Part shown: positions 36,269 to 63,592 of the stretch, in pieces
Numbering within the stretch: position 1 is the stretch's first letter
Layout of the letters: each line of letters starts with the position of its first letter
Notes under the pieces: model-generated
Database searches by the model: none
Told to the model about the DNA's origin: nothing
What the model saw: only the letters and a program-made list of their open reading frames with translations
DNA from: a virus
Lineage: Duplodnaviria > Caudoviricetes
IMG/VR virus record: IMGVR_UViG_3300033076_001146
Coordinates: 5,284 to 69,283 of that record
Length of the DNA stretch: 64,000 nucleotides
Direction: 5' to 3' (one strand)
Position numbers and translations under genes: made by a program

Positions 36269-36658
36269 ATGACATCAGAACAGTTAGACCTGATCCAATC
36301 CCACTACAAGCCGCCCTTTACCTACGATCCGCAAGGGCAAATGATTTTCGACAGTCTAAGCCGACTCGTGTTGGACGTGCGCGGCTGGGGCTGGATTCAG
36401 CATTTACACGACTCCGAGGCAATTCAAGACAGCTTTGGCAAATGGGTAGCAGAAGTGCTAACCCGCGAGATAAAGGCAATTTCAATCACACCTACTGCCC
36501 CGCCCTCGGCATCACCGGACGGCCGGCTTTCTTCTGGGCTTCCTTTATCTTCTGATCCTCATAAAACCGCGTCTGACGCAGCGGCGTGCCCATCAGGCCA
36601 TAGCCTGCCGTCTCAAGCGCCGTCATCGGCACCTTCTGGCGACCAAGCTGCATCGTAG
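36269..36658 (+). CDS. Hypothetical protein (3' end overlaps giant gene antisense)
   Basis: YKPPFTYDPQGQMIFD...LDVRGWG motif. Confidence 0.5.
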   Translation: MTSEQLDLIQSHYKPPFTYDPQGQMIFDSLSRLVLDVRGWGWIQHLHDSEAIQDSFGKWVAEVLTREIKAISITPTAPPSASPDGRLSSGLPLSSDPHKTASDAAACPSGHSLPSQAPSSAPSGDQAAS

Positions 36659-39600
36659 GCCGTTTGCCCTGTGCCAGTGCGGCGACCGTCTCGGCGGTCT
36701 TGGTGTACGGTGTCACGGCTTTGGCCGCACGATAGAGCGCATTGTTGCGTTTTTCCGGCGTCTTGGCGTTGTCGTAGTTCTCTTTCTGCGTCCACAGTTC
36801 TGCCATGAGTCCCACAGTCGGGCCACCGATGGCGTTCAGCGCCTTCTCTTTCGGCGTCTTGCCGAAGGGCGCATCCAGCAGCATCATCGAAGACGACAAA
36901 TCCTGCTCCAGCAAGGCCGGCGCACCAAAGTAGACGCCCTCGGCGATCTTGTTGGCGAGGTGTTTGTCTTCGGGCGGGAGTTTGTCTTCAAGGGTTTTGG
37001 CCAGCGTGCCCAGGATGATGATGCCGGGGATCGAGGACAGCGCCGAAATGCTGCGCACGCCACCCACGGCCACCTGTGACACGACCATCTTGGAAATGCG
37101 CGCCAGCTTGCCGGTTTCACTTCCCTGCGGCGCACGTTGGGCATCTGCCCAGATGCGTTCCAGGTTCTTCACCGTGTAGCCTTTGAATTGCAGCAACACG
37201 CGGGCGAGCGGTTCCCGGAACAGCGGCGGAGCCCCAAAGCGGCCATTGTCGAACTCGACCTTGGCGGCCCAATCGGCGGCCATCCGCGCCTTCTCTTGGC
37301 CAGTCAAGCCTAGCTTATCGGCCATCAGCTCCCCGGCCAGATGCCCGACGATGCGGTTGGAGTCCGACACTGTGCCGAACAGTGTCCAGGGGCCGCGCTT
37401 CTCTATCCCTTCGACCTGACCGCCGGATTCTTTCTCGGCAATCTCTTTCAAGCGGGCCCGGATTTCAGGACGGCGCGCATCGGCCATCACTTTGGCGAAT
37501 TCGCGCGTGGTCAGATGCGGCCACAACGTTTGGAAGGGCTGCAACCAGTTCACCGCCGCTGAACGCGGGTTATACGCCAGCACGCGGTAATAGTTGAACT
37601 TGGTCAGGAAGTTGGCGAGGCCTGACCACGGCTCATTGCCCCCACGCACGGCGTCAAGGTGGGCTTCGATGTAGTTGGCCAGTTGCGGCTTCCCTGCCAG
37701 GCGCAATTCCTGTTGATAGGGTTTGACCGTCTTGGCCAGATTGTCGAGCGTGGCGTTGCGCGCCTGCGGATTGCGGGCAAGTTCCACCTGTGCGTCTTTG
37801 AAGGCCTCGCTGATGGCCTTCCCTGCCGCGCCGCCCAGCTTTTCATAGGTGCCGATGTAATTGAGATTGCTGAGCGGCGAGCGCAGCGTGTCGCGCGCAT
37901 CAGCGTCGCGGGTCAGCTTGGCCTGCTCGCGTCCGCTGAAGGTCTGTGCGATTTGCTGCTGTATTTTGCGATACGCGATGCCGTCTTTCGCCTTGCGCGC
38001 CGCTTCAAGCTGCGCCTCGTAGCCTTCAAAGCGCGTAAACAGCGCGTCCGCGTCGAGGTCAATGCCCTGCCTCTCGGCTGCGCTGACGTAGCGGTCCAGC
38101 GTCTTGACCACTTTGTCTAAGTAACGGTCGTGTGCGGCGTCATCCGGCAAGCGACGACGTTCGGCCCAGGCGGACAGTTCGCGATAGGCTTGGGCGATGT
38201 TGAGGCCGGATGAGCGGGTGTCGGGCGTGGATTTCTGCCCCATCACCTCGCGCATTTCTTCTAGCTGTTTCTTTGTTCCTATCTCTTTGCCTGGTTGCGT
38301 GATGTTCTTGGTACGCATTGGCATCAATGCCGCAACTGGCTGTCCGTTTTTCCGAAAGACGAGCACCCCGGTGTTATCTTTACCCGCTTGGGCAATCTCG
38401 TCTGGCGCGTGCGCGTCCATAATCGCACGTAAATAAGCCGCGTCTGCCGCTGTTACTTGATTCTTGGCATCTGTCAAAAAGGCGTAGGGCGTTTTCTGGT
38501 CGCCCATATACATCACGCCTTCAATCTTTAACGGACGCTTGGCCTGTTTATTCCAATCGGCGAAATGCGTCTCTAAATCCTCGTCTGATTTGTATACTTT
38601 GGAATCTTCGTTCTTTTTTAGCATTGCGGGCGGCAACTTTTTCGCACCTTCCGCTCTAATCACGAGATGTCCATCTGTGACGAATTTTTTACCAGTCGCA
38701 ATGTTGCCATTTGTGGCCACATCTGGCTTAACGCTTTCGAATGGCACAATTGCTTGCCGCACAGACGATTCGCCTGCATCTTCCCAAGCAAAATCGCGTG
38801 ACAACGGTGTCTGACGCGGCGCTGTCAGTCCTTTTAGCGGTGCACGTCCTGTCACCTTCGGACGATCAAGCCGGGATTCAAGCGCGCGAGCTTCCTGCGG
38901 TCCTCGCAAAGTAAACCGCCCATCTCCCGGCACCGGGATTGTGACATCGCGCCCTTCGGCCAGCATGGGCTTGGCCTCTTTGATCTTGCCGCGCAAATAC
39001 TGCTCTTGTGTCGGCGTTAATCCGGTTTTGCCAATCTTTTCTTTTTCGGCGGCGTTCTCGACGCGAATCTTTTCGCTTAACTCAGGCTTCAGCATTTGTA
39101 CTTGGCCCGACTCTGCGCGGGCCAATCTCTCTTGCGCCTGTTTCAGTTCTTTCGCGGCTTCATTTGATGTTGGGCTAAATTGACGTGCTTGCTCTGCCAG
39201 TCCCACTTGACGCCGTTTCGCTTCAGTATAGTCGCCTTCCTCAAAGAGCGATTGCCGCAATTCCGCATCCGTGGCACGCGGTTTCGCCACTTCCCCGCGC
39301 GGCGGAGCTTGCTCGGCGACGGGTTGAACCGGGGCATATACATCCCCTTGTCGTCTGTAGCCTTGTGGTAAGCTGTCTTTTAATCTGTAGGTGTCTACCG
39401 CCTCGGCATTGACTGGTTGGCCCTTTCGTGCGGCTTTTAAGACTTCGGCATCATTTGCAGGCCCTAGACCCGCCGCCTTGTATTGCGCAGGCGTCATTAG
39501 ATGTGGCGCGACTTGCTCGGCGACGGGCTGCGGCTGGGCTGGTGCGGCTCCTGCTGGCTTCTCAATCACCACCATCCGCGCATTCACGCCCGTATTCACC

Positions 39601-42600
39601 GGCAAGGACGGATCAAGGAATGAGCCAGGTTCCAGCTTTTCGGATGTCCCGCCGACGCTTTCCAGCCATTCGCGAAACTCGGTGGCCTTCTTATCGCTGC
39701 CAAAGAACGAGCCTTCGCCCATAATCGCGACAAGTCGCCCTTCGGGTTTGAGCAAGTCGTAAGCATGGCGAACGTGTTCGATGTCACGCCGATTGCTAAA
39801 CGGCGGATTCATCACGATGCGGTCATATTGGCCCTGCGTTTCCAGAAAGTCTTGCCCGACAAGATTATGGCCCTTTGCCTCTAACAACTCGCGCCGGTCG
39901 CTCGCCATTTCCACGACGTCAGGATCAACGCCCGCTTCGCGCAACCGGTCGGCAATGTGGCCCATCCCGGCGGACGGCTCCAGCACGGCCATTCCCTCTT
40001 TCACGTCGGCGACTTCAATCATTCGATCAGCCACGCTGGCGGGCGTCGGGAAGAAATCCAACCCGTCATTCTTGCGGCCAATCATCGCCCGCTCCATCTC
40101 TTTGATCTTGTCGGGCGCTTTGGCTTGTTCGCGCAGCCCGATGAATTCACGCAAGGCGGCGCGCAGTTCGGCGGGCGTCTCAATGCCCATCCCGGCCAAT
40201 CGCTTCCGCTTGTCATAGGCAGACTCGAACGTCCACGGCACATCAATTTCGCGCCGTTTGAGCGTCTTCAGCTTGGCGACCAGTTCGTCGCCGATGTCAT
40301 TGCCCAACGTGATGCGCTTGTCGTTGTCGCCTGCCCAGATGCCACGCTCGCGCGCCGCTGACGGACTCAGAATGATGAGGTTTTGCCCGCGCTTGAACGG
40401 CAACACGATGGCTTGGCCCTTAAAGCCACTGCGCGCAATCGCAGCTTCAGCGGTCGCCTTGCTGCCAAAAACAGCGCGTTCACCATCCTTGCGGCTAAAC
40501 GTCGAAACCTTATGCACATTCTCTTTGGCAAACTTCAGATAGGCGTCGGTCACATCATCGGCTTCTTTGAGGATTGCCGCACCGAGCTTCTTTGTGCCTT
40601 CCTGCTCGATCAACTGGCGGCCCAGCTTCGCCAAATCCGAACGGTACGCCGTATAGGTCGGGAACGTCGCGTGATCAGCGGCTTCTTTGGTTGGCGGCTC
40701 GCCGAAGTGTTTTTCCTGTTCGGCGTAGGTCGGATACTTCGAACGCAGGTAATCGCCCTGGCCCGAATGGACGAAACTTTGCAACATCTCGACCTGCACC
40801 TTTTGGCGCACGCGATCCAGGAATTTGGCCTTGCCGGCTTCGATGGCGTCGGCAATGTTGCGCATGGTCTTCGCCATTGCCTTGCTCGCATTGGCGGCAG
40901 ATTCCGCGCTTGCCGCAAAGCGCGCGCGCCGGTCGGTGTTGGCTTTGCGTTCAACCGACAAGGATTCGTCTGCACGCGCGTCCAGCGCGTCGGCCATCTC
41001 GCGTAACCGCTCCACAGCCGTCTGGCTCTTGTCGTCTTGCATCGCATCGCGACGCGCCTGCACTGTCTCTTTGGCCTTATCCACCTTGCCGCCCAGATAT
41101 TCCAAGAATGCCTCGGCGTTCGCGCGCGTCTTGAATTGGAAGCCAGGAACAGCGCCAGCCGCACGATAGGATGAATACCAGCCGCCCAGCCGTTTCGCCG
41201 TCGCGTTCCATTGGTTGTACACGTCGCGCTCGACACGTTCGGCGGCTTTGACCACGAACAGCGGCTCGCCGGTCTTGGTGTGTTTGGTTTCGATTACGTC
41301 GCCGGTCATTGACTGGCTGGCTGCGCGCACTTCGGTGCGTTGCTGGTCAGCACGCGCACGGCGTTCATCGCGTGATTTGGTCGCGGCCAGTTCGTCGTAT
41401 TGCGCCCGCTGTTCCGGCGTCAGCGACATCCGCACCTGTTGAAAGGTGACGCCCTCGCCAATCTCGGCAGCCTTGGCCCGGATCACGCGGTTAAAGTCTT
41501 CGAGCGTCTTCGGGTCTTCCATCCCCTCCAGCGCGGCTTTCTTCTTTTGTTCGCGTTCGGCGGCAGCTTGTTTGACCTTCTCGGCGTATTGGCTCAGTGA
41601 TTCGTCGGTGTGCTTCTCGACAACCGCGCGAATGCCCTTCGTGTAAGAGTCGTCACCCATACCATAGTTGAAGCTTTGGTTCAGGGTGTAATCGCTCTGC
41701 ATTTCACGGAACGCCGCGTCAACAACTTCGGCTTTTGTCTCGTTCTTGTAGCGCCAGCGCAGATCGGGAAACTTCTCAAAAATGCCATCCTTGGTCAGCT
41801 TGGACAATTCCGCCTTGATGGCTTCCTTGTTGGTGGCTAGCGCTTCAAAGGACGCCTTGATTTCAGCGGCAGTGGCTTGGCCCTTCTCAATGCGGTCGAA
41901 GAGGTCGGCGTGTGCTTCGACATTGGTGCGCGCTCTCTCGACAGATTGCGCGGAGGCTTCCGCGACAGGCTTCGACTTTGCCTCATACTCAGCATCGCGC
42001 CGCGCTTCTTCTGCCCATTCCTGCGGCGTCAGATCGCGCACAACGCGATATTTGCCCGGCTCGCTCGGATGTTCTTGCGCTCGCCACTGCGGCCCCATCT
42101 TCTTGGCGCGAATCTCAGCGGAGCGCTTGCTGATCATGTCACCGCCGCGCGTTCGATCAACAATGACTTTCTCTTTCCTTGCTGGCGTTTGCGCAGGGTT
42201 CACACGGGGCGCACTGGCAACGCTTCCCTCCCCTTTTGGCTGAGCAGGCTGGGTGGCTTTGGACGGTGAGGATTGTGAGGATTCTCCTTGCAGTTTGATT
42301 TCAGTTTGAACACCGTTCTTACTGCTAAACAGCAAGCGATCAAGGGTAACTTCTTGGCCTTCTAAATCAGTCAAACCAGCATATTTCTTGCCCGTACCTG
42401 GCTTGACATAAGCGATTGTCGCGTGTGGTTTGTAATCAGGATGCGTGTCCGTGTGCGGCATTGCATCCGCAATCTTCTTGTTTAAGCGCTGCAAATCAGG
42501 CGAGTCAACATCCACTTTCACCACATCGGCATCTTCATTTTCAAACAGTGAGGTCTTACCGAGACGCACGCGTACTGGCGGTTCACCTGCTAGAATCTGT

Positions 42601-45600
42601 TGAATCTTGGCGGGGTCTTCATCGTGCAATCCATACTTTACGGTGATGTGTGACTCTGTTTCGCGTCCGTCTTCGGTCAAATCGGCATCGGGAATTTTCT
42701 CGCCCAAAGCTCGCATTTTTTCTGCTACCGCATCAGGCAAGTTGACTTGCGTGCTGGAGAATTTGCCCTGCTTGCCTTTTACGATGCTGACGCCCGTTTT
42801 ATTTTCAGGATTGGCTACAACAAAACGCCCGTCGGCTGTTTCGGCAATTATTGGCTTGCCTGAAATGGCCGGATTATCATGACGTACTTTTTGCTGTCCT
42901 GGCTGCGACACTTCCTCCGCCCGCACCTCGCCCGCCCTGCGCAGCGTGTTGCCCTCTTCGACAATGCGGCCCTGCTGTTTCAGTGCTTCGAGTGCGGGAT
43001 TGATGCGGCCACGGGTCAGCCCGCTTTCACGGATGAGGCTGTCGCGGGTGATGGTGCCGGTGTCGGGAATGAGTCCGTGGATGAAATCGGCATCGGGGTT
43101 GGATTTATTACTCGCGGCATTATCCTGAACCCTTTGCTGCTCGCGACTGACGCCTTTGGCAGTATCTGTTCGAGGATTGCCTGACTGGTCTGCTCCTGAT
43201 TGCGTCCGGCGAACATCCGGCGCAACGCGGTTCCCTGTCGAGCGTGCATCCGGTTGCACGCTGCCTGCACTTTGTTCTGGTCTTTCGGTATCCGACGCTT
43301 GAATGCTCTCATTGATCGCCTTTGCCCTTTCGATGTCCTGCGTATTTTGAATGGTCTGCTGATACCGCCGCCTGTCTTCGGCTCCCAATCGGGAAGCATT
43401 GCGGCGCATCCACGCATCCCACGCCCATTGCGGCACCTGTGTCAAAGATACCTCATCGGCATTGACTTTCATCATGCGCGCAAAGGTATTTTTGAAGGCT
43501 TGGCGTGTTTCGCCTGCGCTCGCGTCGGCATCCAGCCCCAATGCCCCTTTGACATTTGGCGACTCATAAAACGAAGTGATCCCCTTCTCGCCATCGGGCA
43601 CGGTGCTTCTGAATACCTGCTGCGCAAAACGGCCAAACGGGCCTTTCCCTTCGGTGCCGGTGGCGCGCGCCTCTTCGACCACACGCCCCTGGCGCACCAG
43701 ATTGCGTTGCTCGCGCGGGAAGACTGCAGACTTGTCGGACGGGCCAGCCGTGCGCAACGGACGGCGCGGGGCTGTTGGCGCGGGCGGACGGCGACGGAAC
43801 GGCAAGACGTCGGCGGATTGCGGTTGCGGTTCTGGCGCAGGCTTTGCGCCATATTCCCCAACTTCCGGCACGCGGTAATAATCCCGCACTTCCCCGCCTT
43901 CATATTCGCTGAACTGGCGGCGCGGCATCCGTTCGACATTCGACGGTCGCACGTTCGGGCGCATCGGCTGTGCTGGTGGCACACCACGACGAACCGCCGC
44001 TAAGGGTTGCTGCGGGATTTCTTCGACGGGCGGGGTTTGGGTTTCGGCGGCGGCGGAAGTTTCTTGCCCAAGAGGTTGCCTTTCAATGACGGGTTGACGT
44101 GGTTGCTGTGGCGGACGTTGGCCGTGTGGCGGTCGCGCCGCTCTTTGCCGGTCGGCAATTTCAGCCTGAATACCCTGCGCTTCGGTGCGTGTGATGCCCA
44201 GCCGGTCGCGGATTTCTGTCAATTGCGGCAGGCGCCCACGCTGCACGAATTCCTGAATGATCGCATCGGCATCCGTGGCGCGCGTGCTGATGTTTGCCTC
44301 AAAGCCAGTTTCCGGCGGCGCGGAGCGCGGTTCAAAAACCGGCGCATTGTCGGCGCTCGTCGGCATCTGCTGCGGGCTGGTGACGGGACGGGCAACCGGT
44401 TGCTGCATCCGGCGCTCGCTGGCCTGCTCAATCTCGCGCTTGGCTTTGGCACTGGCCGCGCTCGCGTTGATCTGCTTCGGATCGTATTCAATCAGATGCT
44501 CGACATCGCCCACCTTAACGACCGATTGCCGATAACCTGGCGTTGGGTCGTTGTTCCATTCGCTCTGATCAAGCACGACAAACGGCGCTTGCTTGCCTGT
44601 GCGTCCGGTCGGACTGGCGGGCTGTCCGTCAGTGGCGGGAGCTTCCGTGCGTGCGGCGCGTAACCCAGCAATGCGCGAAGTCGGCGCGACTGGCACAGTC
44701 GCGGGCTGTGTTGCATCCAAATTCGGCGAAATTTCTGGCGCGGCGATTTTGGATGACGGCGGGGCTTGCGCGCGCCGGGCGGCCCGGTCGGCCAATCCCT
44801 GTTGCGCGGCGTCGCTAATCCCAAACGCAGCACCGACGGCGGCGTCTTCTGCCAGCTTGTTCGGATCAATCTTGCCGGTCAGTAACGGCTGCGTCACCAA
44901 CGATTGCCCGACGTTGCCGGCTGCGCCAACACCCATTTCACCAGCGGTGCGCGCCAAGGTGCGCGGAATCGGGCGCATGGCCTGTGTGGCATTGTTGAGC
45001 ATCGGACGCGCGGCCCGCGTCAGCGCCATCGGCACGGCAGTGCTCGCCATATTGACGGCAGTGTCCAACGGTCGCTCAATGTCGCCCATTGCAGCCTGTG
45101 TGCCCAGCGCGGCGGGCAATCCGCCAACTGCGCCCAATGCCACGGCGGGCAAAGCATCGCCCACGGCACGGGTCACATTTCCGGCTGTCGTTTGCCGGGT
45201 GGCTGCGTCCGCCGCTTCCTGTGCGGCAACCTGCTGCAACTGATCGTAATTCAGCGCGTTCGGGTCGGTCAGATATTTGCGCGCGGCTTCTTCATAGGCT
45301 TTGCGCGCATTCGCTTTGACGGCTTCGGCATTGGCGTAAGAAAACCGCCCCAACTGCTGTTGGATGGCTTCCCGCGCGGCAGGATTCGACGTTGTGCCAG
45401 GTTCTTGCAGGTAATTTGCGACGTTGCCCGCGACATCCTGAATCCCTGTCACTAATCCGCCCGCCAACTGCGCGCCGGTCGCCGTCAACGGCGTCACGTC
45501 GCCCCGCACCAACCCTTGCCCGATGGTTTCAACACGCTGGCCGGTTTGCGCCAGTCCGGTCATCAGGCGTCCGGGGACGCGTTTGGCTTCTTCGTAAATC

Positions 45601-46403
45601 TGGCTCGTAACAGGTTTTTGCGCGAATTCTTCCGCCGCCTTGCGCTTGGCTTGGAGTTCTGGCGTTTCCGGCAACACTTGCTCGCGCTGCGCCATTCCCT
45701 GCTGCAACGTCTCAAAAGGCGACGTGCGCAGGCCTTGAATCTGCTTCGTCAGCGGACGGCGAACGTCCACACTCGGCATTGCGCTGATGCGCGGTCCCAT
45801 TGGTCTGGCAGGTTGTTGCGGCGCTTGCACAGGCCGCTTGGACGGCTGCGGCAGCATTTCGTTGGGAATGTCTGGCCCATACGCGCCCGGGTTTTGCTGG
45901 CTGGGGCGTGGCGTGTTGGATTTCCAGGCTTCGGCGCGCGGTTGCGCCTGTTGCTTCCATTGTTCAAACCGTCCGGCTGGCTGCGCAGTCTCGGCGGGAC
46001 CACCCACCACGTCGGCATAGTGCTGGGTTTCCGGGATATTGGGCACACCGCCAGCCTTCCGCACGCGACCGGGCCCAGCATTGTACGCCGCGGCGGCCAA
46101 GCGCCGGTCCCCGCCAAACTGGTCAAGCATCTGCTTGCTGTAGCGCACCCCACCTACGATGTTCTGATCCACGTCGTATGGGTCAACGCCTAAATCGCGC
46201 GCCGTGCCCGGCATCAACTGCATGGCACCGATCGCGCCCGCCTTGGACTTCTTGTGCCCAAGGATGACGTCCGGGTCGCCGCCAGTTTCCTGCTTGTGCT
46301 GGCGCGCGGCGTAATCTTCTGGCACGCCTTGATTGCGCGCCTCTTCACGGACACGCCGGTCAGCATACCCTGTCACCCAATTGCGGAAGCGTCCTTGCGG
46401 CAT
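36492..46403 (-). CDS. Giant polyvalent ejection-type virion protein: SLT, 2H phosphoesterase (Acb1-like), N6-adenine methyltransferase, LPD38-like C-terminus
   Basis: QETGG/GAMQLMP/AYNAGPG (about 46010-46350); HITVKY and PHATIAY (42310-42770); FFPTP/LEPSAG/NPPF (39558-40060). Confidence 0.85.
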   Translation of the reverse strand: MPQGRFRNWVTGYADRRVREEARNQGVPEDYAARQHKQETGGDPDVILGHKKSKAGAIGAMQLMPGTARDLGVDPYDVDQNIVGGVRYSKQMLDQFGGDRRLAAAAYNAGPGRVRKAGGVPNIPETQHYADVVGGPAETAQPAGRFEQWKQQAQPRAEAWKSNTPRPSQQNPGAYGPDIPNEMLPQPSKRPVQAPQQPARPMGPRISAMPSVDVRRPLTKQIQGLRTSPFETLQQGMAQREQVLPETPELQAKRKAAEEFAQKPVTSQIYEEAKRVPGRLMTGLAQTGQRVETIGQGLVRGDVTPLTATGAQLAGGLVTGIQDVAGNVANYLQEPGTTSNPAAREAIQQQLGRFSYANAEAVKANARKAYEEAARKYLTDPNALNYDQLQQVAAQEAADAATRQTTAGNVTRAVGDALPAVALGAVGGLPAALGTQAAMGDIERPLDTAVNMASTAVPMALTRAARPMLNNATQAMRPIPRTLARTAGEMGVGAAGNVGQSLVTQPLLTGKIDPNKLAEDAAVGAAFGISDAAQQGLADRAARRAQAPPSSKIAAPEISPNLDATQPATVPVAPTSRIAGLRAARTEAPATDGQPASPTGRTGKQAPFVVLDQSEWNNDPTPGYRQSVVKVGDVEHLIEYDPKQINASAASAKAKREIEQASERRMQQPVARPVTSPQQMPTSADNAPVFEPRSAPPETGFEANISTRATDADAIIQEFVQRGRLPQLTEIRDRLGITRTEAQGIQAEIADRQRAARPPHGQRPPQQPRQPVIERQPLGQETSAAAETQTPPVEEIPQQPLAAVRRGVPPAQPMRPNVRPSNVERMPRRQFSEYEGGEVRDYYRVPEVGEYGAKPAPEPQPQSADVLPFRRRPPAPTAPRRPLRTAGPSDKSAVFPREQRNLVRQGRVVEEARATGTEGKGPFGRFAQQVFRSTVPDGEKGITSFYESPNVKGALGLDADASAGETRQAFKNTFARMMKVNADEVSLTQVPQWAWDAWMRRNASRLGAEDRRRYQQTIQNTQDIERAKAINESIQASDTERPEQSAGSVQPDARSTGNRVAPDVRRTQSGADQSGNPRTDTAKGVSREQQRVQDNAASNKSNPDADFIHGLIPDTGTITRDSLIRESGLTRGRINPALEALKQQGRIVEEGNTLRRAGEVRAEEVSQPGQQKVRHDNPAISGKPIIAETADGRFVVANPENKTGVSIVKGKQGKFSSTQVNLPDAVAEKMRALGEKIPDADLTEDGRETESHITVKYGLHDEDPAKIQQILAGEPPVRVRLGKTSLFENEDADVVKVDVDSPDLQRLNKKIADAMPHTDTHPDYKPHATIAYVKPGTGKKYAGLTDLEGQEVTLDRLLFSSKNGVQTEIKLQGESSQSSPSKATQPAQPKGEGSVASAPRVNPAQTPARKEKVIVDRTRGGDMISKRSAEIRAKKMGPQWRAQEHPSEPGKYRVVRDLTPQEWAEEARRDAEYEAKSKPVAEASAQSVERARTNVEAHADLFDRIEKGQATAAEIKASFEALATNKEAIKAELSKLTKDGIFEKFPDLRWRYKNETKAEVVDAAFREMQSDYTLNQSFNYGMGDDSYTKGIRAVVEKHTDESLSQYAEKVKQAAAEREQKKKAALEGMEDPKTLEDFNRVIRAKAAEIGEGVTFQQVRMSLTPEQRAQYDELAATKSRDERRARADQQRTEVRAASQSMTGDVIETKHTKTGEPLFVVKAAERVERDVYNQWNATAKRLGGWYSSYRAAGAVPGFQFKTRANAEAFLEYLGGKVDKAKETVQARRDAMQDDKSQTAVERLREMADALDARADESLSVERKANTDRRARFAASAESAANASKAMAKTMRNIADAIEAGKAKFLDRVRQKVQVEMLQSFVHSGQGDYLRSKYPTYAEQEKHFGEPPTKEAADHATFPTYTAYRSDLAKLGRQLIEQEGTKKLGAAILKEADDVTDAYLKFAKENVHKVSTFSRKDGERAVFGSKATAEAAIARSGFKGQAIVLPFKRGQNLIILSPSAARERGIWAGDNDKRITLGNDIGDELVAKLKTLKRREIDVPWTFESAYDKRKRLAGMGIETPAELRAALREFIGLREQAKAPDKIKEMERAMIGRKNDGLDFFPTPASVADRMIEVADVKEGMAVLEPSAGMGHIADRLREAGVDPDVVEMASDRRELLEAKGHNLVGQDFLETQGQYDRIVMNPPFSNRRDIEHVRHAYDLLKPEGRLVAIMGEGSFFGSDKKATEFREWLESVGGTSEKLEPGSFLDPSLPVNTGVNARMVVIEKPAGAAPAQPQPVAEQVAPHLMTPAQYKAAGLGPANDAEVLKAARKGQPVNAEAVDTYRLKDSLPQGYRRQGDVYAPVQPVAEQAPPRGEVAKPRATDAELRQSLFEEGDYTEAKRRQVGLAEQARQFSPTSNEAAKELKQAQERLARAESGQVQMLKPELSEKIRVENAAEKEKIGKTGLTPTQEQYLRGKIKEAKPMLAEGRDVTIPVPGDGRFTLRGPQEARALESRLDRPKVTGRAPLKGLTAPRQTPLSRDFAWEDAGESSVRQAIVPFESVKPDVATNGNIATGKKFVTDGHLVIRAEGAKKLPPAMLKKNEDSKVYKSDEDLETHFADWNKQAKRPLKIEGVMYMGDQKTPYAFLTDAKNQVTAADAAYLRAIMDAHAPDEIAQAGKDNTGVLVFRKNGQPVAALMPMRTKNITQPGKEIGTKKQLEEMREVMGQKSTPDTRSSGLNIAQAYRELSAWAERRRLPDDAAHDRYLDKVVKTLDRYVSAAERQGIDLDADALFTRFEGYEAQLEAARKAKDGIAYRKIQQQIAQTFSGREQAKLTRDADARDTLRSPLSNLNYIGTYEKLGGAAGKAISEAFKDAQVELARNPQARNATLDNLAKTVKPYQQELRLAGKPQLANYIEAHLDAVRGGNEPWSGLANFLTKFNYYRVLAYNPRSAAVNWLQPFQTLWPHLTTREFAKVMADARRPEIRARLKEIAEKESGGQVEGIEKRGPWTLFGTVSDSNRIVGHLAGELMADKLGLTGQEKARMAADWAAKVEFDNGRFGAPPLFREPLARVLLQFKGYTVKNLERIWADAQRAPQGSETGKLARISKMVVSQVAVGGVRSISALSSIPGIIILGTLAKTLEDKLPPEDKHLANKIAEGVYFGAPALLEQDLSSSMMLLDAPFGKTPKEKALNAIGGPTVGLMAELWTQKENYDNAKTPEKRNNALYRAAKAVTPYTKTAETVAALAQGKRPTMQLGRQKVPMTALETAGYGLMGTPLRQTRFYEDQKIKEAQKKAGRPVMPRAGQ

Positions 46404-58130: not shown

Positions 58131-58343
58131 GGTGTGAGGTAAAAGGTAGGTGAACCGCCGTCGCTCGTCCTGTCTTTCCGATGCCTCGCCATCCAGAACG
58201 GGCGTTGCCCCAGGACGGCAGCCTTTGCGGCGCGACCGCTCAAAGTCGGAAATGCGAACGCACTTCCCTATGCCGCAAAGATGGAGCCGAGGGCGAACGC
58301 GGAAGGGAAAGGCGAGAAAGCAACGCGCCCGCCCCGGCAAAAG

Positions 58344-58874
58344 CTAAAACTTCAGACCGCGACTGGTCAGAATGCCGAATGCACCATCCAAAATGATGGC
58401 AATCCAGTTGTCCTTGGCGCTGCCATACCGCACGCGCAGCTTGGCAAACACCGCATCGCGCGCCGCTTTGACATCGGCGTTATTTTGCGAGCGCAACGCT
58501 TCTTCAAGGAACGTCAACGCATCGCCCAGCAACGGCTTGCCGTAAGTCTCGACAAACCCTTGCAGCCCGACGCGCGCAATTGCGCCCCAAATCTTGCCCC
58601 AGAGCCGCATAAACCAGTTTTCGCCCTTGGCCTTGTACTGCTCATAGGCGACCGCGACCGCGATGGCCAGATAGGCGCTGCTCAGCGTGTTGAATCTGGC
58701 GCGCAATTCACTCAACACGGACTCGCGCCACAAGTGAAACTCCTGATTGGTTTTCACCTTGGCGAGCCGTTCAATGATGGCACGCGCAAAGGCAACCGCC
58801 TCCGCGATCTGCGCTTCGATGGTCGGGCCAAGCTCTGCCCCGGTTGCTTTTCGGATCAATTCTTGCGTATTCAA
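58344..58874 (-). CDS. Hypothetical amphipathic helical protein
   Basis: 176 aa next to holin-like gene. Confidence 0.55.
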   Translation of the reverse strand: MNTQELIRKATGAELGPTIEAQIAEAVAFARAIIERLAKVKTNQEFHLWRESVLSELRARFNTLSSAYLAIAVAVAYEQYKAKGENWFMRLWGKIWGAIARVGLQGFVETYGKPLLGDALTFLEEALRSQNNADVKAARDAVFAKLRVRYGSAKDNWIAIILDGAFGILTSRGLKF

Positions 58875-58877
58875 TTC

Positions 58878-59078
58878 CTACTCCTTTGTTCCGCTGACGT
58901 TTCCGTCTTTACCGAAAACGCCCAACAGTGTGACACCCAGCCCAATGATGACTTCGGTAAGCTTTTGCTGCGCATCGGGGCTGATTTCGATGCCGTAGTT
59001 GACGAGCAACGTCGCCAACCCCGTCACGATGCCCACCGCAGTGGTGCGCCAGCTTTTCAATAAAACTTCCACAAACAT
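58878..59078 (-). CDS. Holin-like two-TM protein
   Basis: SWRTTAVG...GVFGKD pattern. Confidence 0.55.
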   Translation of the reverse strand: MFVEVLLKSWRTTAVGIVTGLATLLVNYGIEISPDAQQKLTEVIIGLGVTLLGVFGKDGNVSGTKE

Positions 59079-59134
59079 CTGATCACCTCGATTCTGCCCG
59101 TCTGGTGAGATTACGGGCTTGCCAAAGATTCAGG

Positions 59135-59521
59135 TTATTTTTTGTAGGTTTGCAAAACGCCGCGCTTTTTACGGTCAAGCTCGCGCTGCTTGTTCCACTG
59201 CAACGCCTCTTCAATCTTGGTAATACTGACGGAGTTTTCACGACAGGCAAATTCGCCTGCATTCGCCTTGCGAATGAAGTCTTGCAGGATTAACAGCAAG
59301 GTCTGATTGCCAATGCCATTGACGCCAATTTCTTTGGGATGGCCTTCTTGTAACTGTATCTGGCAAACCACCCAGGAAGGCTTACCATCGTGGCCATTCG
59401 TTCGCACTTCGTAATAATGCGGCACGCCGCCCGCACCGTCTGGTCCTGCGTAGACCTCAAGGAATTCTTCCGTGAAGCCGTCAATCATTGGGTGATCTAC
59501 TTTGCGTAACTCTTCAGACAT
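59135..59521 (-). CDS. tad1: Tad1-family anti-Thoeris immune-signal sponge
   Basis: GAGGVPHYY, IQLQEG..KE, GEFACRENSVSITKIEEALQW..R..DR..RGV; AAGGA RBS before ATG 59521. Confidence 0.8.
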   Translation of the reverse strand: MSEELRKVDHPMIDGFTEEFLEVYAGPDGAGGVPHYYEVRTNGHDGKPSWVVCQIQLQEGHPKEIGVNGIGNQTLLLILQDFIRKANAGEFACRENSVSITKIEEALQWNKQRELDRKKRGVLQTYKK

Positions 59522-59607
59522 TTTGTCTATCCTTTCTTGTCGCGTTTTGCGACGTAACCGACCGTTAATCGCACGAGGGCAATCGTGCCGCCCGCAAAAG
59601 CACCAAC

Positions 59608-59796
59608 TCATTGCCGCTTCTCGCCGTTCATTTGCTTGGCGCGTTTATCGGCATCTTGCCAATCGTTAAAGGTCAATGCCGGGCCTGCATCCGCCGCCGT
59701 CAGCAGCCAGCCTGTGCGCGTGTCTACGATGACATTGACGCCAGGGGCGCGGGTTTCGGCCTTGTAACGCGGTTGCTCGTCCGTGCTCACGTTCAT
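59608..59796 (-). CDS. Hypothetical protein
   Basis: 62 aa, ATGA overlaps. Confidence 0.45.
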   Translation of the reverse strand: MNVSTDEQPRYKAETRAPGVNVIVDTRTGWLLTAADAGPALTFNDWQDADKRAKQMNGEKRQ

Positions 59797-60095
59797 GCTG
59801 ATACGTCGTCGCCCATCTCTTTATGAACGCCAGCAAGCGTGTCTATCCCAAATGCAGCTTTCATAAATCGGGCGGCAGCTCGGTTAGCGGCTGGGCCGCG
59901 CATCCCTTCATCCATTGCTGCGCAGGCAAGATTGCAATGGTATGTCCAAGCCCATTCAGGATCAGCTTGTAAAGCCTGCTTGAATGCGTAATAAGCCGCC
60001 GAACCGTCAGTCGTCTCGCTCGCCAAAGAAGCAACAGGGCTTACCGTGACCGCCACTGCTGCGCCAGCGCTTTTCAACATTTCTCGTCTATTCAT
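59793..60095 (-). CDS. Protein with twin-arginine-like signal
   Basis: MNRREMLKSAGAAVAV. Confidence 0.5.
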   Translation of the reverse strand: MNRREMLKSAGAAVAVTVSPVASLASETTDGSAAYYAFKQALQADPEWAWTYHCNLACAAMDEGMRGPAANRAAARFMKAAFGIDTLAGVHKEMGDDVSA

Positions 60096-60109
60096 TGAAC
60101 TTCCCTTCT

Positions 60110-60865
60110 TTATAAAACCCCCAGCAAAACACTCAGCACACGCGCCAGGTTGAGCGGCTTCTGCCACTTCCGCGCCGTCGCTACCATCGGCGGCAATTCC
60201 GCAGTGGCAGCATCCAAGTTCACTGCAATATCCCCTGTCTCGCGCACCAGCCGTTCAGCCATCGCGATCATCTCTGGCAACTTCGGATCAGCCAATAACG
60301 CATTGACCTGCTCTGCCGACACGGTGCCCGACGCGATCAGCTTCTTGAATTCGCCCGCAATTTCCGGCACCGACACGGACAAGCCCGCCGCCAGTTGATT
60401 CAACCCAGCCGCCGTCGCGCGAACCTCAGACGTGACGCCTTTGGCTTCGACCAGTAATTCGCTGACGTGGCCACTGTTGACCGCCAAGGCGGCCTTGGTT
60501 TCCCAAATCGCAGCCTGCAATGCCGTGGTGGATTCGGTCAGCCCGTCAAGCGTCTTGTTCACCCGCGGCAGCGTCTCGGTCTGAACGTCGGCCAACATCG
60601 CATTGGTCAGCAACACCGTATCGCGGAACTTGCGGTTGATGTTGGCGTCTTCGATCTGTGCGCGCTGCGAATTGGTCAGATTCTGAACGGCGTAGGCTGT
60701 GGCCTTGATCTGGCCCGTCGTCGTTTTGATGTCGGCTAACACCGGCTCAACCGCTTGTAGATTGCGGCGCGCGGGTAATGTTAGAGCGATAGCGCAGGCC
60801 AACAAGCCAAAGCAGAGGATGATGCGCGCCAGCCGTTCGGCTTTGGAGAAACCGGAAAGGGTCAT
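60110..60865 (-). CDS. Membrane-anchored coiled-coil protein (spanin candidate)
   Basis: Hydrophobic N-terminus with LLAC, long coiled coil, hydrophobic C-terminus. Confidence 0.45.
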   Translation of the reverse strand: MTLSGFSKAERLARIILCFGLLACAIALTLPARRNLQAVEPVLADIKTTTGQIKATAYAVQNLTNSQRAQIEDANINRKFRDTVLLTNAMLADVQTETLPRVNKTLDGLTESTTALQAAIWETKAALAVNSGHVSELLVEAKGVTSEVRATAAGLNQLAAGLSVSVPEIAGEFKKLIASGTVSAEQVNALLADPKLPEMIAMAERLVRETGDIAVNLDAATAELPPMVATARKWQKPLNLARVLSVLLGVL

Positions 60866-60881
60866 TTAGATATATGGACGC

Positions 60882-61199
60882 CTACATCCCAGCTAGAACG
60901 GTTTCAATTGTCTCGTGAAAAATTTTCCGTCGCGTAGAATTGGATGCGAGATAATTTGCATCCAGCTCCATCACGTCCTCAACAATATCCTCGTCACCGT
61001 TGACTAAGACTTCAATGTGTAACTTACGCTCAAATAAAAACGCCTTTACTACATCCCAGAATGCGAGACGAATCGTAGTGCGGACGAATGGATCAGGAAT
61101 AATCTGATTGCGAATTGCCTGTCCGTTGATGCGGGTTTCTACGTTAAATCGCAGTCCCGTCTCTCGACTGTCGTAAGTTGGCTCTATTGATTTTCTCAT
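60882..61199 (-). CDS. Hypothetical protein (AT-richer)
   Basis: 105-aa ORF with AAGG RBS. Confidence 0.5.
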   Translation of the reverse strand: MRKSIEPTYDSRETGLRFNVETRINGQAIRNQIIPDPFVRTTIRLAFWDVVKAFLFERKLHIEVLVNGDEDIVEDVMELDANYLASNSTRRKIFHETIETVLAGM

Positions 61200-61214
61200 T
61201 ACTCAACCTTTCCC

Positions 61215-61421
61215 TTAATTACTAATTTGTTCCATATACAACCCACGCAACCGCGCCTCGAAGCATTCCCACATTTCCAGCACCGACCGCTGACCGTCGC
61301 CGTACAACTCGCGCAGATGGAAGATCAGATTTGCGTCCACCTTGCGGGCGCATCGCTCAGGCTGAACGATGTGCATCATACTCGTAAGATTTTCGGCGCG
61401 GACTTCTTCCGGTGATACCAT
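61215..61421 (-). CDS. Hypothetical protein
   Basis: 68 aa after endolysin. Confidence 0.45.
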   Translation of the reverse strand: MVSPEEVRAENLTSMMHIVQPERCARKVDANLIFHLRELYGDGQRSVLEMWECFEARLRGLYMEQISN

Positions 61422-61423
61422 AT

Positions 61424-62014
61424 TTAAGCCTGATACTTAGCGAACGCCTTGGCGAGCTTTACATCATAGCTGTTGATTTTGTAATCCGCGCCGTTATAAC
61501 CGCGCGCGAACCCCGCCCAATCCAGTCGCTGCAATTCATCCTGCAAGCCATTTTGTTGAACAAACTCAACGAACCCTTCAAGCTGTGCCCGTTCGCCTGT
61601 CTGGAATGCCGCAATCATTTCTTCAACGCTGGCATAGCCACAGACCGCAAAGTTAAACCCCATGATCTGAAACTTGCCGTAGCTGGCGCTGAGTTGAGCC
61701 GCCTGCGGATCAAGCGCAAAAGCTTTCTTGAAACGCTCCCATTCTTTTTCGCCGCGCTCATCAAAGGTCTTGCCGCTGCAATATCCGCCCGCCTTCGGCC
61801 AAGAAAATTCAGCATTTGCGCCAATCGAATACCGCCCCTTACTGTACTTGTGGAATTTGTGACGCTCAAACAAGATCACTAGCTTACCGTTGGAAAGAAA
61901 GCCTCCGCGTGGTGCTTCGACTTCACAGACGGCTTTGATGGCGGGCACTTTGCAAGCAAGTTCTTGCGCGGCCCAGGCAAAGTCTTCTTCGGTTAGTGTG
62001 AGGGGTTTACTCAT
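61424..62014 (-). CDS. Endolysin, N-acetylmuramidase (DUF3380-like)
   Basis: KAVCEVEA, ILFERHKF, SASYGKFQIMGFN, FARGYNG. Confidence 0.9.
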   Translation of the reverse strand: MSKPLTLTEEDFAWAAQELACKVPAIKAVCEVEAPRGGFLSNGKLVILFERHKFHKYSKGRYSIGANAEFSWPKAGGYCSGKTFDERGEKEWERFKKAFALDPQAAQLSASYGKFQIMGFNFAVCGYASVEEMIAAFQTGERAQLEGFVEFVQQNGLQDELQRLDWAGFARGYNGADYKINSYDVKLAKAFAKYQA

Positions 62015-62300
62015 CGGTATCTCTCCGCTTTTCAAGTAACCGCCGAATGCCGCGCATATCATCGTGCAGGTTGTCGAGCTTCGCGTTTACCGTGGCAAAC
62101 GCCACCTCTTGCGCCCCTTGCCTGCTTTCGATCTCTTTCAAACGCGCTTGCACGGCTGCAACTTCCGCCTTGGATGCGCGCGTTAAAAGCGTGCCAAGCA
62201 CGCCTGTGGCAATCCCTGTCAACGCCGTGCCGATGTTTTCGCCAAGCTTGTGCAGCCAATCACCTTCCAAAATCATTCCCTGATTCTCCGTGTTGTGCAT
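62007..62300 (-). CDS. Holin-like one-TM plus coiled-coil protein (start approximate)
   Basis: Hydrophobic GTALTGIATGVLGTLL; overlaps endolysin start. Confidence 0.5.
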   Translation of the reverse strand: MHNTENQGMILEGDWLHKLGENIGTALTGIATGVLGTLLTRASKAEVAAVQARLKEIESRQGAQEVAFATVNAKLDNLHDDMRGIRRLLEKRRDTDE

Positions 62301-62480: not shown

Positions 62481-62828
62481 TTATGATTTCCGGGACATAT
62501 TGATGCGGACGGTCACAGATGGAGCACCGCCGCCGCTGACAGGCGTGGTCACGCGAGCGCGGAAAAATCCGCCAACCGTTTCCACTGCTTCGCCGATGGT
62601 TGCGGGCGCGGTGATAGTCGAAGCATCCAGCGTGACCAAGGTTTGCCACGTTCCGCTGTAATCCTGTGTCGGCGCGCGTTCCAGCACAATCACGCCTGCC
62701 GTAACGCCCGTGGCAAAATCGCAATCCATGCCCACGCGGTCCATATCATTCCCGGCATACGCATTGGATGTGCCCGTCGTGACGGCACTTAATGCGGTAA
62801 CTGTTCTTGTCTCTCTGCCTGTGCTCAT
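62481..62828 (-). CDS. Small beta-rich virion-like protein
   Basis: 115 aa; ATGA overlap. Confidence 0.5.
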   Translation of the reverse strand: MSTGRETRTVTALSAVTTGTSNAYAGNDMDRVGMDCDFATGVTAGVIVLERAPTQDYSGTWQTLVTLDASTITAPATIGEAVETVGGFFRARVTTPVSGGGAPSVTVRINMSRKS

Positions 62829-63592
62829 GCGTTCCTCCGACCGGCAGCCATCTGACGCTGCCGCATCAGGGGGATGACCGAATCAATTTTTTCGTTGAGT
62901 TCCTTCACGCCTTGTAGCGCCTGCGCGGCCAAGCTGGGATCGCCGTAATTCACTTTCAACGGCTCCCCTTCCTCTTTGACGACAGCTTCAGGAAATGAAT
63001 CATCCAAGTCCTGCGCAATAACGCCGTCTTCGTGGCCGCTGCCGTCTTTCCAGTCCCATTCCTTCGCCTGGTAGCCGTCCAACTTGTCGAGCACGGGACG
63101 CGTGGGCTTGATATTGTCTTTGAGGCGTTCGTCGGAAGCGAGGATTGCGGCGCTCGCAACGCTTGCGCCTGCACCCATCGCTTTCCCCCAAAACGAATCC
63201 ACCACTTGCGAGTTGTAGCCGCTTTCCTTCGTCGCCAGCGGTCGCGGCACGGTCAGCCCCGCCAGGAAGGTGCGCCGCGCAAGTCCCTGTTGTTTGGCGT
63301 CATAAGCTGACTGCCCCAAGGCGGCGCCATAATCCGCCGTCAACCCGCGTTCTGCTTCGCCTTCCTGCGCGATCCGTGCTGCGGCAGTGGTGCCGCCTTG
63401 GTTGTATTGGCTACGGTAACGACGTGCGTTGTTTTCGCGCGCGCGGTTGTATTGGCCTTCAAGCGCAGGTTGCAGCGTTTCGGCAGTGTCGCCGTATTCA
63501 CGCAACGCTGTGATGTCGGCGGTATCTGGCGGCGTCCACGCCTCGTAAGTTGTGTTGCGCTCAAAGGGCGCTTTCTTCGCGGTTGATGTCAT
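62825..63592 (-). CDS. Pilot/ejection-like protein with C-terminal peptidase S74 (ICA) domain
   Basis: SDERLKDNI, GVIAQDL, PEAV, LKVNY, GVKEL. Confidence 0.75.
   Translation of the reverse strand: MTSTAKKAPFERNTTYEAWTPPDTADITALREYGDTAETLQPALEGQYNRARENNARRYRSQYNQGGTTAAARIAQEGEAERGLTADYGAALGQSAYDAKQQGLARRTFLAGLTVPRPLATKESGYNSQVVDSFWGKAMGAGASVASAAILASDERLKDNIKPTRPVLDKLDGYQAKEWDWKDGSGHEDGVIAQDLDDSFPEAVVKEEGEPLKVNYGDPSLAAQALQGVKELNEKIDSVIPLMRQRQMAAGRRNA

Follow-up and report, generated by a model that had tools for sequence, protein, structure and literature searches.

What does a Tad1 protein capture when near-invariant residues of its side pocket have been exchanged? The question is raised by a small gene at positions 59135..59521 (minus strand) of the window, a stretch of 64,000 nucleotides that corresponds to bases 5284-69283 of the 69,283-bp IMG/VR record IMGVR_UViG_3300033076_001146 (CheckV completeness 100%). 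Seven phage sponge families have been characterised; Tad1 (Thoeris anti-defense 1) is among them, and gcADPR was revealed with its help. The family is already well known; judged from sequence comparison, what is new at this locus is a member of a clearly delimited sub-clade with a rebuilt side pocket.

A Tad1-family gene in a temperate phage

The phage record encodes a major head protein, a large terminase, a DnaB-type helicase and an integrase, together with a PF11860 endolysin and tail fibres; by this gene content, the source is an uncultured temperate tailed phage of 69 kb. As a host clue, tRNA genes were looked for in the phage sequence, and none were found. Among cultured phages, the best matches to the terminase reach only 27-32% identity (phages of Halorubrum, Tunturiibacter, and Thermus), and the capsid relatives are all metagenomic, with a Rhodothermales MAG providing the sole organism name among them. 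The single close match to the Tad1 protein in a MAG comes from a bin named "Heliomicrobium", on a contig of 10.6 kb that may itself derive from a phage.

The gene stands alone and encodes 128 amino acids plus a stop codon. Two observations support the start at 59521: a Shine-Dalgarno-like GAAAGGA, read from the sequence at 59530..59536 (minus strand), 8 nt before the ATG, and the homologues, which are 123-141 amino acids long and whose N-termini coincide with this start. Another in-frame ATG lies upstream at 59611 (59609-59611, minus strand), where it overlaps, as ATGA, the stop codon (59608-59610) of a 62-aa ORF at 59608-59796. Starting there would give a 158-aa product, yet its 30 additional residues, rich in Cys and Arg, occur in no homologue and this longer form was rejected. 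All the strings quoted in an earlier note on this DNA (GAGGVPHYYEV, IQLQEGHPKE, GVNG, GEFACRENSVSITKIEEALQW, and RGVL) are present in the 128-aa translation, and those it gave for CbTad1 (GPGGAYHEY, FQKG..KE, GPFSSRENA, EEALMW, and DR..R.V) agree with the CbTad1 chain in the HMMER output.

The earlier note had assigned the product to the Tad1 family, proposing profile and structure matches as the check, and both kinds of match were found. In a phmmer search against all PDB chains, only Tad1 entries and phiKZ gp184 were matched, with E values of 1.4e-14 to 2e-14 for CbTad1 (7UAV, 8KBE-8KBH) and 1.3e-13 for CmTad1 (8KBB); the Tad1 matches span query residues 17 or 25 to 126 of 128. The match to phrog_2428 is full length (E 2.7e-25). 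An AlphaFold2 model built from a 32-sequence alignment (pLDDT 90.4) places strands at residues 6-8, 21-25, 36-41, and 51-57 and helices at 72-88 and 94-120, that is, a four-stranded N-terminal beta-sheet followed by two long C-terminal helices; the published Tad1 architecture is an N-terminal antiparallel beta-sheet with two long C-terminal helices (Leavitt et al., 10.1101/2022.05.03.490397). When this model was compared with the PDB by Foldseek, the top 20 matches were all Tad1 (TM 0.80-0.84), only Tad1 fell at E < 1e-3, and the next match had E 0.16. VIA-align superposed 113-123 residues on the Tad1 chains (Z 11.9-13.7, rmsd 1.8-3.1), whereas the first unrelated chain gave Z 7.0 over 55 helical residues only. 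Thus, the product of 59135-59521 is a true Tad1 family member, and no other fold comes close. Pfam PF24729 (Acb2_Tad1_hairpin), on the other hand, scores 12.6 bits (E 0.16) over residues 90-109 only, below the gathering cut-off of 27, so that the gene would be missed by Pfam alone; a precomputed protein-database table lists PF24729 for the window's protein and its relatives. The PADLOC library, which models defence and not counter-defence, gave no match for the Tad1 protein or for the 2H domain described below. The family itself is large, a profile search retrieving 5485 clusters (50% identity) at E up to 1e-3 and 3345 at E up to 1e-10.

Several characterised relatives can be set beside the window's protein. 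CbTad1, from a Clostridium botulinum prophage (7UAV/7UAW/8SMD, 8KBE-8KBH), is of the same length class, about 31-33% identical, and has the same wedge of beta-sheet and two helices (TM 0.81-0.84, Z 11.9-13.3). CmTad1, from a Clostridioides mangenotii prophage (8KBB-8KBD), gives the best superposition of all (Z 13.7, rmsd 1.8, 119 residues), at 27-28% identity. The founding member, SBSphiJ7 Tad1 (142 aa), is likewise a free-standing small phage gene of the same family. Bacillus phage homologues match the window's protein over its full length at 39-41% identity, and, by sequence, presumably belong to the majority branch described below, with Arg and Phe at the two swapped positions; SBS Tad1 binds 3',3'-cGAMP and cUA tightly (published work).

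Conserved central site and altered peripheral pocket

The HMMER alignment to CbTad1 is free of gaps over residues 65-126 and anchored by D81, G89, F91, RENxxxxT, W109, R113, and R117, so that the residue mapping is secure over this range. In CbTad1, R90A or T97A abolishes both cA3 binding and NucC inhibition (Li et al., 10.1101/2023.11.15.567273). Both of these validated cyclic-trinucleotide contacts are kept in the alignment, as R94 and T101 (59219..59242, minus strand), within a CRENSVSIT segment that includes C93 one codon upstream (59243-59245, minus strand); C93, R94, and T101 are also the counterparts of pocket residues C87, R88, and T95 of CmTad1. Five of the six equivalents of CmTad1 R88, T95, K96, Q98, E99, and W103 are identical (R94, T101 and, at the hexamer interface, K102, E105, and W109), and the sixth, E104, resembles Q98. 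Differences from CmTad1 are S97/V98 for A91/M92 and, at the interface, Q108/Q112 for M102/K106. R94, T101, E104, W109, R113, and R117 are invariant in the 31-member clade defined below; the trinucleotide Arg is found in 31/31 clade sequences versus 172/217 of the remainder, and the Thr in 31/31 versus 177/217. On this comparison, the cyclic-trinucleotide (CBASS) site appears to be the best supported Tad1 function, and the two central pockets probably capture cA3/cAAG-type CBASS signals.

The peripheral gcADPR/dinucleotide pocket has fared differently. In CbTad1, F82 and R109 stack on gcADPR, N92 reads the base, R109 and R113 form a phosphate clamp with R57, and H29, G55, R78, and N122 read the ribose linkage (10.1101/2022.05.03.490397). 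Binding of gcADPR and 2',3'-cGAMP is abolished in the CbTad1 double mutant F82A/N92A and likewise in R109A/R113A (10.1101/2023.11.15.567273). The window's protein retains six of 11 gcADPR-contacting residues: H35, G60, F91, N96, R113, and R117 correspond to CbTad1 H29, G55, F87, N92, R109, and R113. The clamp arginines R113-R117 are encoded, according to the alignment, at 59171..59185 (minus strand). The other five are changed, with P62 for R57, F82 for R78, A86 for F82, Q124 for G120, and Y126 for N122. The pocket has therefore lost its adenine-stacking Phe (now A86), its ribose-linkage Arg (now F82), and its lid Gly and Asn (now Q124 and Y126), so that sequestration of the Thoeris signal gcADPR cannot be taken for granted. 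Since the arginine clamp and the base-reading Asn (N96) remain, the peripheral pocket is still expected to bind an adenine-containing phosphate ligand. The two helix alpha1 replacements, F82 and A86 (codons 59264..59278, minus strand), share one face of the helix in the AlphaFold2 model, spaced by four residues (i, i+4); F82 of the window's protein, one helical turn before the lost Phe, could compensate for it or stack on a second aromatic group. The aligned lid residues, Q124-Y126, are encoded at 59144..59152 (minus strand). At the N-terminal segment, through which CbTad1 contacts the guanine of 2',3'-cGAMP with Q8 and L13 (10.1101/2023.11.15.567273), the window's protein instead carries HPMIDGF, the motif of its clade.

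These replacements are not peculiar to one phage. The family profile served to align 248 Tad1 domains gathered in two protein searches; the sample is biased to the query's neighbourhood, and the counts thus describe these 248 domains and not the whole family. All sequences with Phe at the CbTad1 R78 position form one clade of 31 tips (FastTree support 0.997), whose stem branch measures 0.83 substitutions per site, the median branch being 0.13. The sub-clade is monophyletic and is marked by R78F, F82A, and G120Q (CbTad1 numbering). At R78, Phe occurs in 31/31 clade sequences and Arg in 217/217 of the rest; at F82, the clade has Ala in 26, Val in 2, Ile in 2, and Cys in 1, versus Phe in 209/217; at G120, it has Gln in 23, Leu in 3, Phe in 2, and Trp in 1, plus Arg and Gly variants, versus Gly in 212/217. 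The base-reading position N92 varies within the clade (Asn 15, Thr 12, Ser 2, Lys 1; Asn in 214/217 elsewhere). The two clamp positions, CbTad1 R109 and R113, are invariant in the clade and Arg in 217/217 and 216/217 of the rest, respectively. In the window's numbering, R113, R117, H35, G60, and F82 are invariant throughout the clade and F91 is present in 29/31. The CbTad1 R57 and N122 positions vary across the whole family and are thus uninformative on the clade. The clade is told apart from the other sequences at 16 positions; the lid change G120Q falls below the threshold of this screen. Read by position, most of the 16 sit in elements that build the peripheral pocket as described in 10.1101/2022.05.03.490397, namely the N-terminal segment, the two loops GxGG-H and beta4-alpha1, helix alpha1, and the beginning of helix alpha2. 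No clade member was found among cultured phages, where 160 records matched, all at 41% identity or less. We likewise found no experimentally tested clade member; the 20 Tad1 proteins tested by Hadary et al. (2025) stand outside this comparison. The earlier note had supposed that substitutions might shift ligand specificity, a view strengthened by the replacement of five of 11 gcADPR contacts, three of them diagnostic of a separate sub-clade.

Neighbourhood, accessory status and a second candidate counter-defence domain

The Tad1 gene belongs to a long minus-strand run, in which it lies between tail-fibre and endolysin genes and a tail-spike gene; a promoter and terminator scan of 58300-60300 gave nothing on the minus strand. 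It was previously described as lying next to lysis genes, which is roughly correct. The endolysin, an N-acetylmuramidase at 61424..62062 (minus strand; PF11860 E 1.1e-56, phrog_1224 E 1.1e-70), is encoded 1.9 kb upstream on the same strand. The 66-aa protein encoded 56 bp downstream of the gene (58878..59078, minus strand) contains two hydrophobic stretches and is holin-like by composition only, with no Pfam, PHROG, or holin-family match. In three other loci, a Phage_holin_10 gene (28.1 bits, cut-off 27) directly follows a clade Tad1 (L054:6464-6757, L055:1533-1826, and L056:967-1260). A relationship between the 66-aa protein and the L054 Phage_holin_10 was considered and rejected, as the two have no similarity. 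Placement of Tad1 beside membrane or lysis genes may nevertheless be recurrent. Two further proteins are encoded between the endolysin and Tad1, one of 124 aa (59793-60167, minus strand) that matches a twin-arginine signal weakly (20.5 bits, below cut-off), the other of 251 aa (60110-60865, minus strand) that has a hydrophobic segment in its N-terminal part and resembles DUF948 weakly; neither has a PHROG match. Just upstream of the lysis region, a 255-aa tail-fibre-like protein (62825-63592, minus strand) carries a Peptidase_S74 intramolecular chaperone (E 1.4e-12). No PDB, Pfam, or PHROG match marks a second anti-defence gene among the neighbouring small ORFs.

A further candidate is found at some distance, in a protein separate from Tad1. 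A 2H phosphoesterase domain (42393..42668, minus strand) occupies residues 1246-1337 of a 3303-aa protein (36492-46403, minus strand) that also has an N-terminal SLT lytic transglycosylase and weak methyltransferase matches, and which we read as a putative giant ejection-type protein with an Acb1-like 2H domain. The earlier note had spoken of an Acb1-like domain. The 2H phosphoesterase is genuine (PF13563, 45.4 bits, cut-off 27) and its best matches among solved structures are Acb1 (9q2g, E 1.9e-6; 9q2y, E 3.9e-5), but the likeness to Acb1 is weak, with Pfam Acb1 (PF23474) at 19.6 bits, below the cut-off of 27, and the T4-type 7t26 at only E 0.17. The pairing of a sponge with an enzyme against nucleotide-signal immunity, also put forward there, seems plausible, if weakly based.

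As for the history of the gene, comparison with four clade relatives yields pN of 0.17-0.26 and pS of 0.78-0.85, which indicates purifying selection; synonymous sites are saturated, so these proportions stand in place of dS. Its GC content is 49.4%, against 56.5% for the window, and locally GC falls to 0.47-0.51 across 59050-59500 between flanks of 0.57-0.60. A second dip, to 0.44-0.46 at 60850-61300, covers two small ORFs without assigned function. We searched for Tad1 in four phages with 65-70% identical capsid proteins: the complete 72-kb relative has no Tad1, the complete 51-kb relative has a 17-bit hairpin match only and no Tad1, and the other two, whose records are 64% and 86% complete, gave no Tad1 match. 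IMGVR_UViG_3300050501_000150, a phage whose capsid protein is 70% identical, has no Tad1, but its 64-aa ORF ending in SRERSLVVTKLEEAHMW (L066:1477-1671, minus strand), next to an HTH protein, is a Tad1/Acb2 hairpin motif standing on its own (17 bits against the Tad1 profile). Nine loci with Tad1 relatives, four of them close clade members, contain no match to any of the 13 proteins encoded around the gene. Tad1 relatives also occur on phage-like contigs, and all the contexts seen are phage-like. Given close relatives without the gene, neighbours that are not shared, and the local GC dip, the gene is accessory cargo moving between phages; tad1 in general has been reported as mobile between phages (10.1101/2022.05.03.490397).

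Candidate signals and meaning for the Tad1 family

Overall, we consider it probable that the gene encodes a stand-alone Tad1-family sponge, presumably hexameric, in which a central trinucleotide trap is combined with an altered peripheral pocket. The protein would assemble as the Tad1 hexamer of three interlocked dimers and would bind the alarm nucleotides of the host but leave them undegraded, the sequestered signal then never switching on the defence effector. Its two central pockets would take cA3/cAAG and so block CBASS with cA3-activated effectors such as NucC, and the six peripheral pockets at the dimer interfaces would keep an adenine/diphosphate core made of H35, G60, F91, N96, R113, and R117. 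With regard to the ligand of these six pockets, a move to another adenine-containing signal, either a cyclic dinucleotide or another ADPR derivative, has not far short of an even chance. Retention of useful affinity for canonical 1''-2'/1''-3' gcADPR is conceivable though somewhat doubtful, and a pocket no longer used at all is improbable.

A fully canonical Tad1, holding gcADPR in the peripheral pocket in addition to cyclic trinucleotides, with the window's F82 taking over adenine stacking, is unlikely but has a serious case. The six kept contacts, among them both clamp arginines and N96, are consistent with it, as are F82 and A86 at i, i+4 on one face of helix alpha1; moreover, Thoeris was inhibited by 10/10 diverse homologues tested (Leavitt et al., 10.1101/2022.05.03.490397), and gcADPR binding has been published as broadly conserved among tested homologues. 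Yet the clade-wide exchange of an Arg otherwise found in every sequence of the sample, along with F82A, G120Q, and a variable N92, suggests changed constraints, and the Phe replaced by A86 was one of the two residues mutated in the CbTad1 variant that no longer binds gcADPR or 2',3'-cGAMP. The long stem branch of the clade and its absence from the cultured phages matched here also speak against the canonical reading.

The same changes allow a bolder proposal, to which we assign a low probability: the 31-member F/A sub-clade would have been re-tooled as a whole, with the central trap kept and the six peripheral pockets rebuilt for a signal outside the present Tad1 ligands. The rebuild may comprise R78F, F82A, G120Q, a lid Tyr/His, and the HPMIDGF N-terminal segment, and candidate ligands may be His-ADPR, N7-cADPR, a 2',3'-linked dinucleotide decoy, or an undiscovered TIR product.

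Still less probable is a trinucleotide-only sponge with a decayed peripheral pocket, acting as the central site of Acb2 (anti-CBASS 2; Vs.4 family) does and blocking only cA3/cAAG-type signalling. Acb2 shares the helical hairpin (PF24729) with Tad1 and its hexamer has two central trinucleotide sites (10.1101/2023.11.15.567273); it differs in being without the N-terminal beta-sheet, and it was not found by phmmer against the PDB (E limit 10), by Foldseek at E < 1e-3, or among the VIA-align rows listed, where Tad1 alone stands on top. In favour of such a sponge, the clade shows no variation at the trinucleotide contacts and interface residues, which are less strictly kept in the remaining sequences, and the peripheral base-reading Asn drifts within the clade. 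The invariance of R113, R117, H35, G60, and F82, with F91 nearly so, would be unexpected for a dead pocket, though some of these residues may be structural, and the replacing residues show conservation of their own (F82 31/31, A86 26/31, Q124 23/31).

Finally, a role in the virion, whether as an associated or as a structural protein with a Tad1 fold, in place of a mainly free sponge in the cytoplasm, is very improbable: the gene does lie among late structural and lysis genes, many Bacillus phage homologues (records H13-H37) are labelled "putative structural protein", and the minor capsid protein gp184 of phiKZ (PDB 8y6v), located inside the capsid (PMC11297242), matches residues 49-126 (E 3e-10), but gp184 is itself regarded as Tad1, with packaging as a delivery route and not another function (10.1101/2025.11.23.690004), the window's protein is a 128-aa full-length match to free Tad1 without an N-terminal anchor, and complete related phages lack the gene, which is thus not a core virion part. 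In phiKZ gp184 (chain I, 230 aa), it is the C-terminal residues 150-227 that match; the preceding 150 or so residues have no counterpart in the window's protein. The gp184 N-terminus is wedged in the capsid and cut by the head protease, and the Tad1 part is released and injected (PMC11297242; 10.1101/2025.11.23.690004). With no such capsid anchor, nothing points to packaging of the window's protein.

[quoted passage not shown] The gene described here is a concrete and well-delimited case, with two near-invariant pocket residues swapped clade-wide and the trinucleotide site invariant. For annotation, it marks a predicted anti-CBASS, and possibly anti-Thoeris, function in a phage that also has an Acb1-like 2H domain. 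For the family, the clade could show whether the Tad1 side pocket is re-aimable, and might supply the bait for a new signal. If the sub-clade has indeed been re-tooled, the protein could pull that signal from infected cells, as Tad1 did for gcADPR and MoTad2 for His-ADPR.
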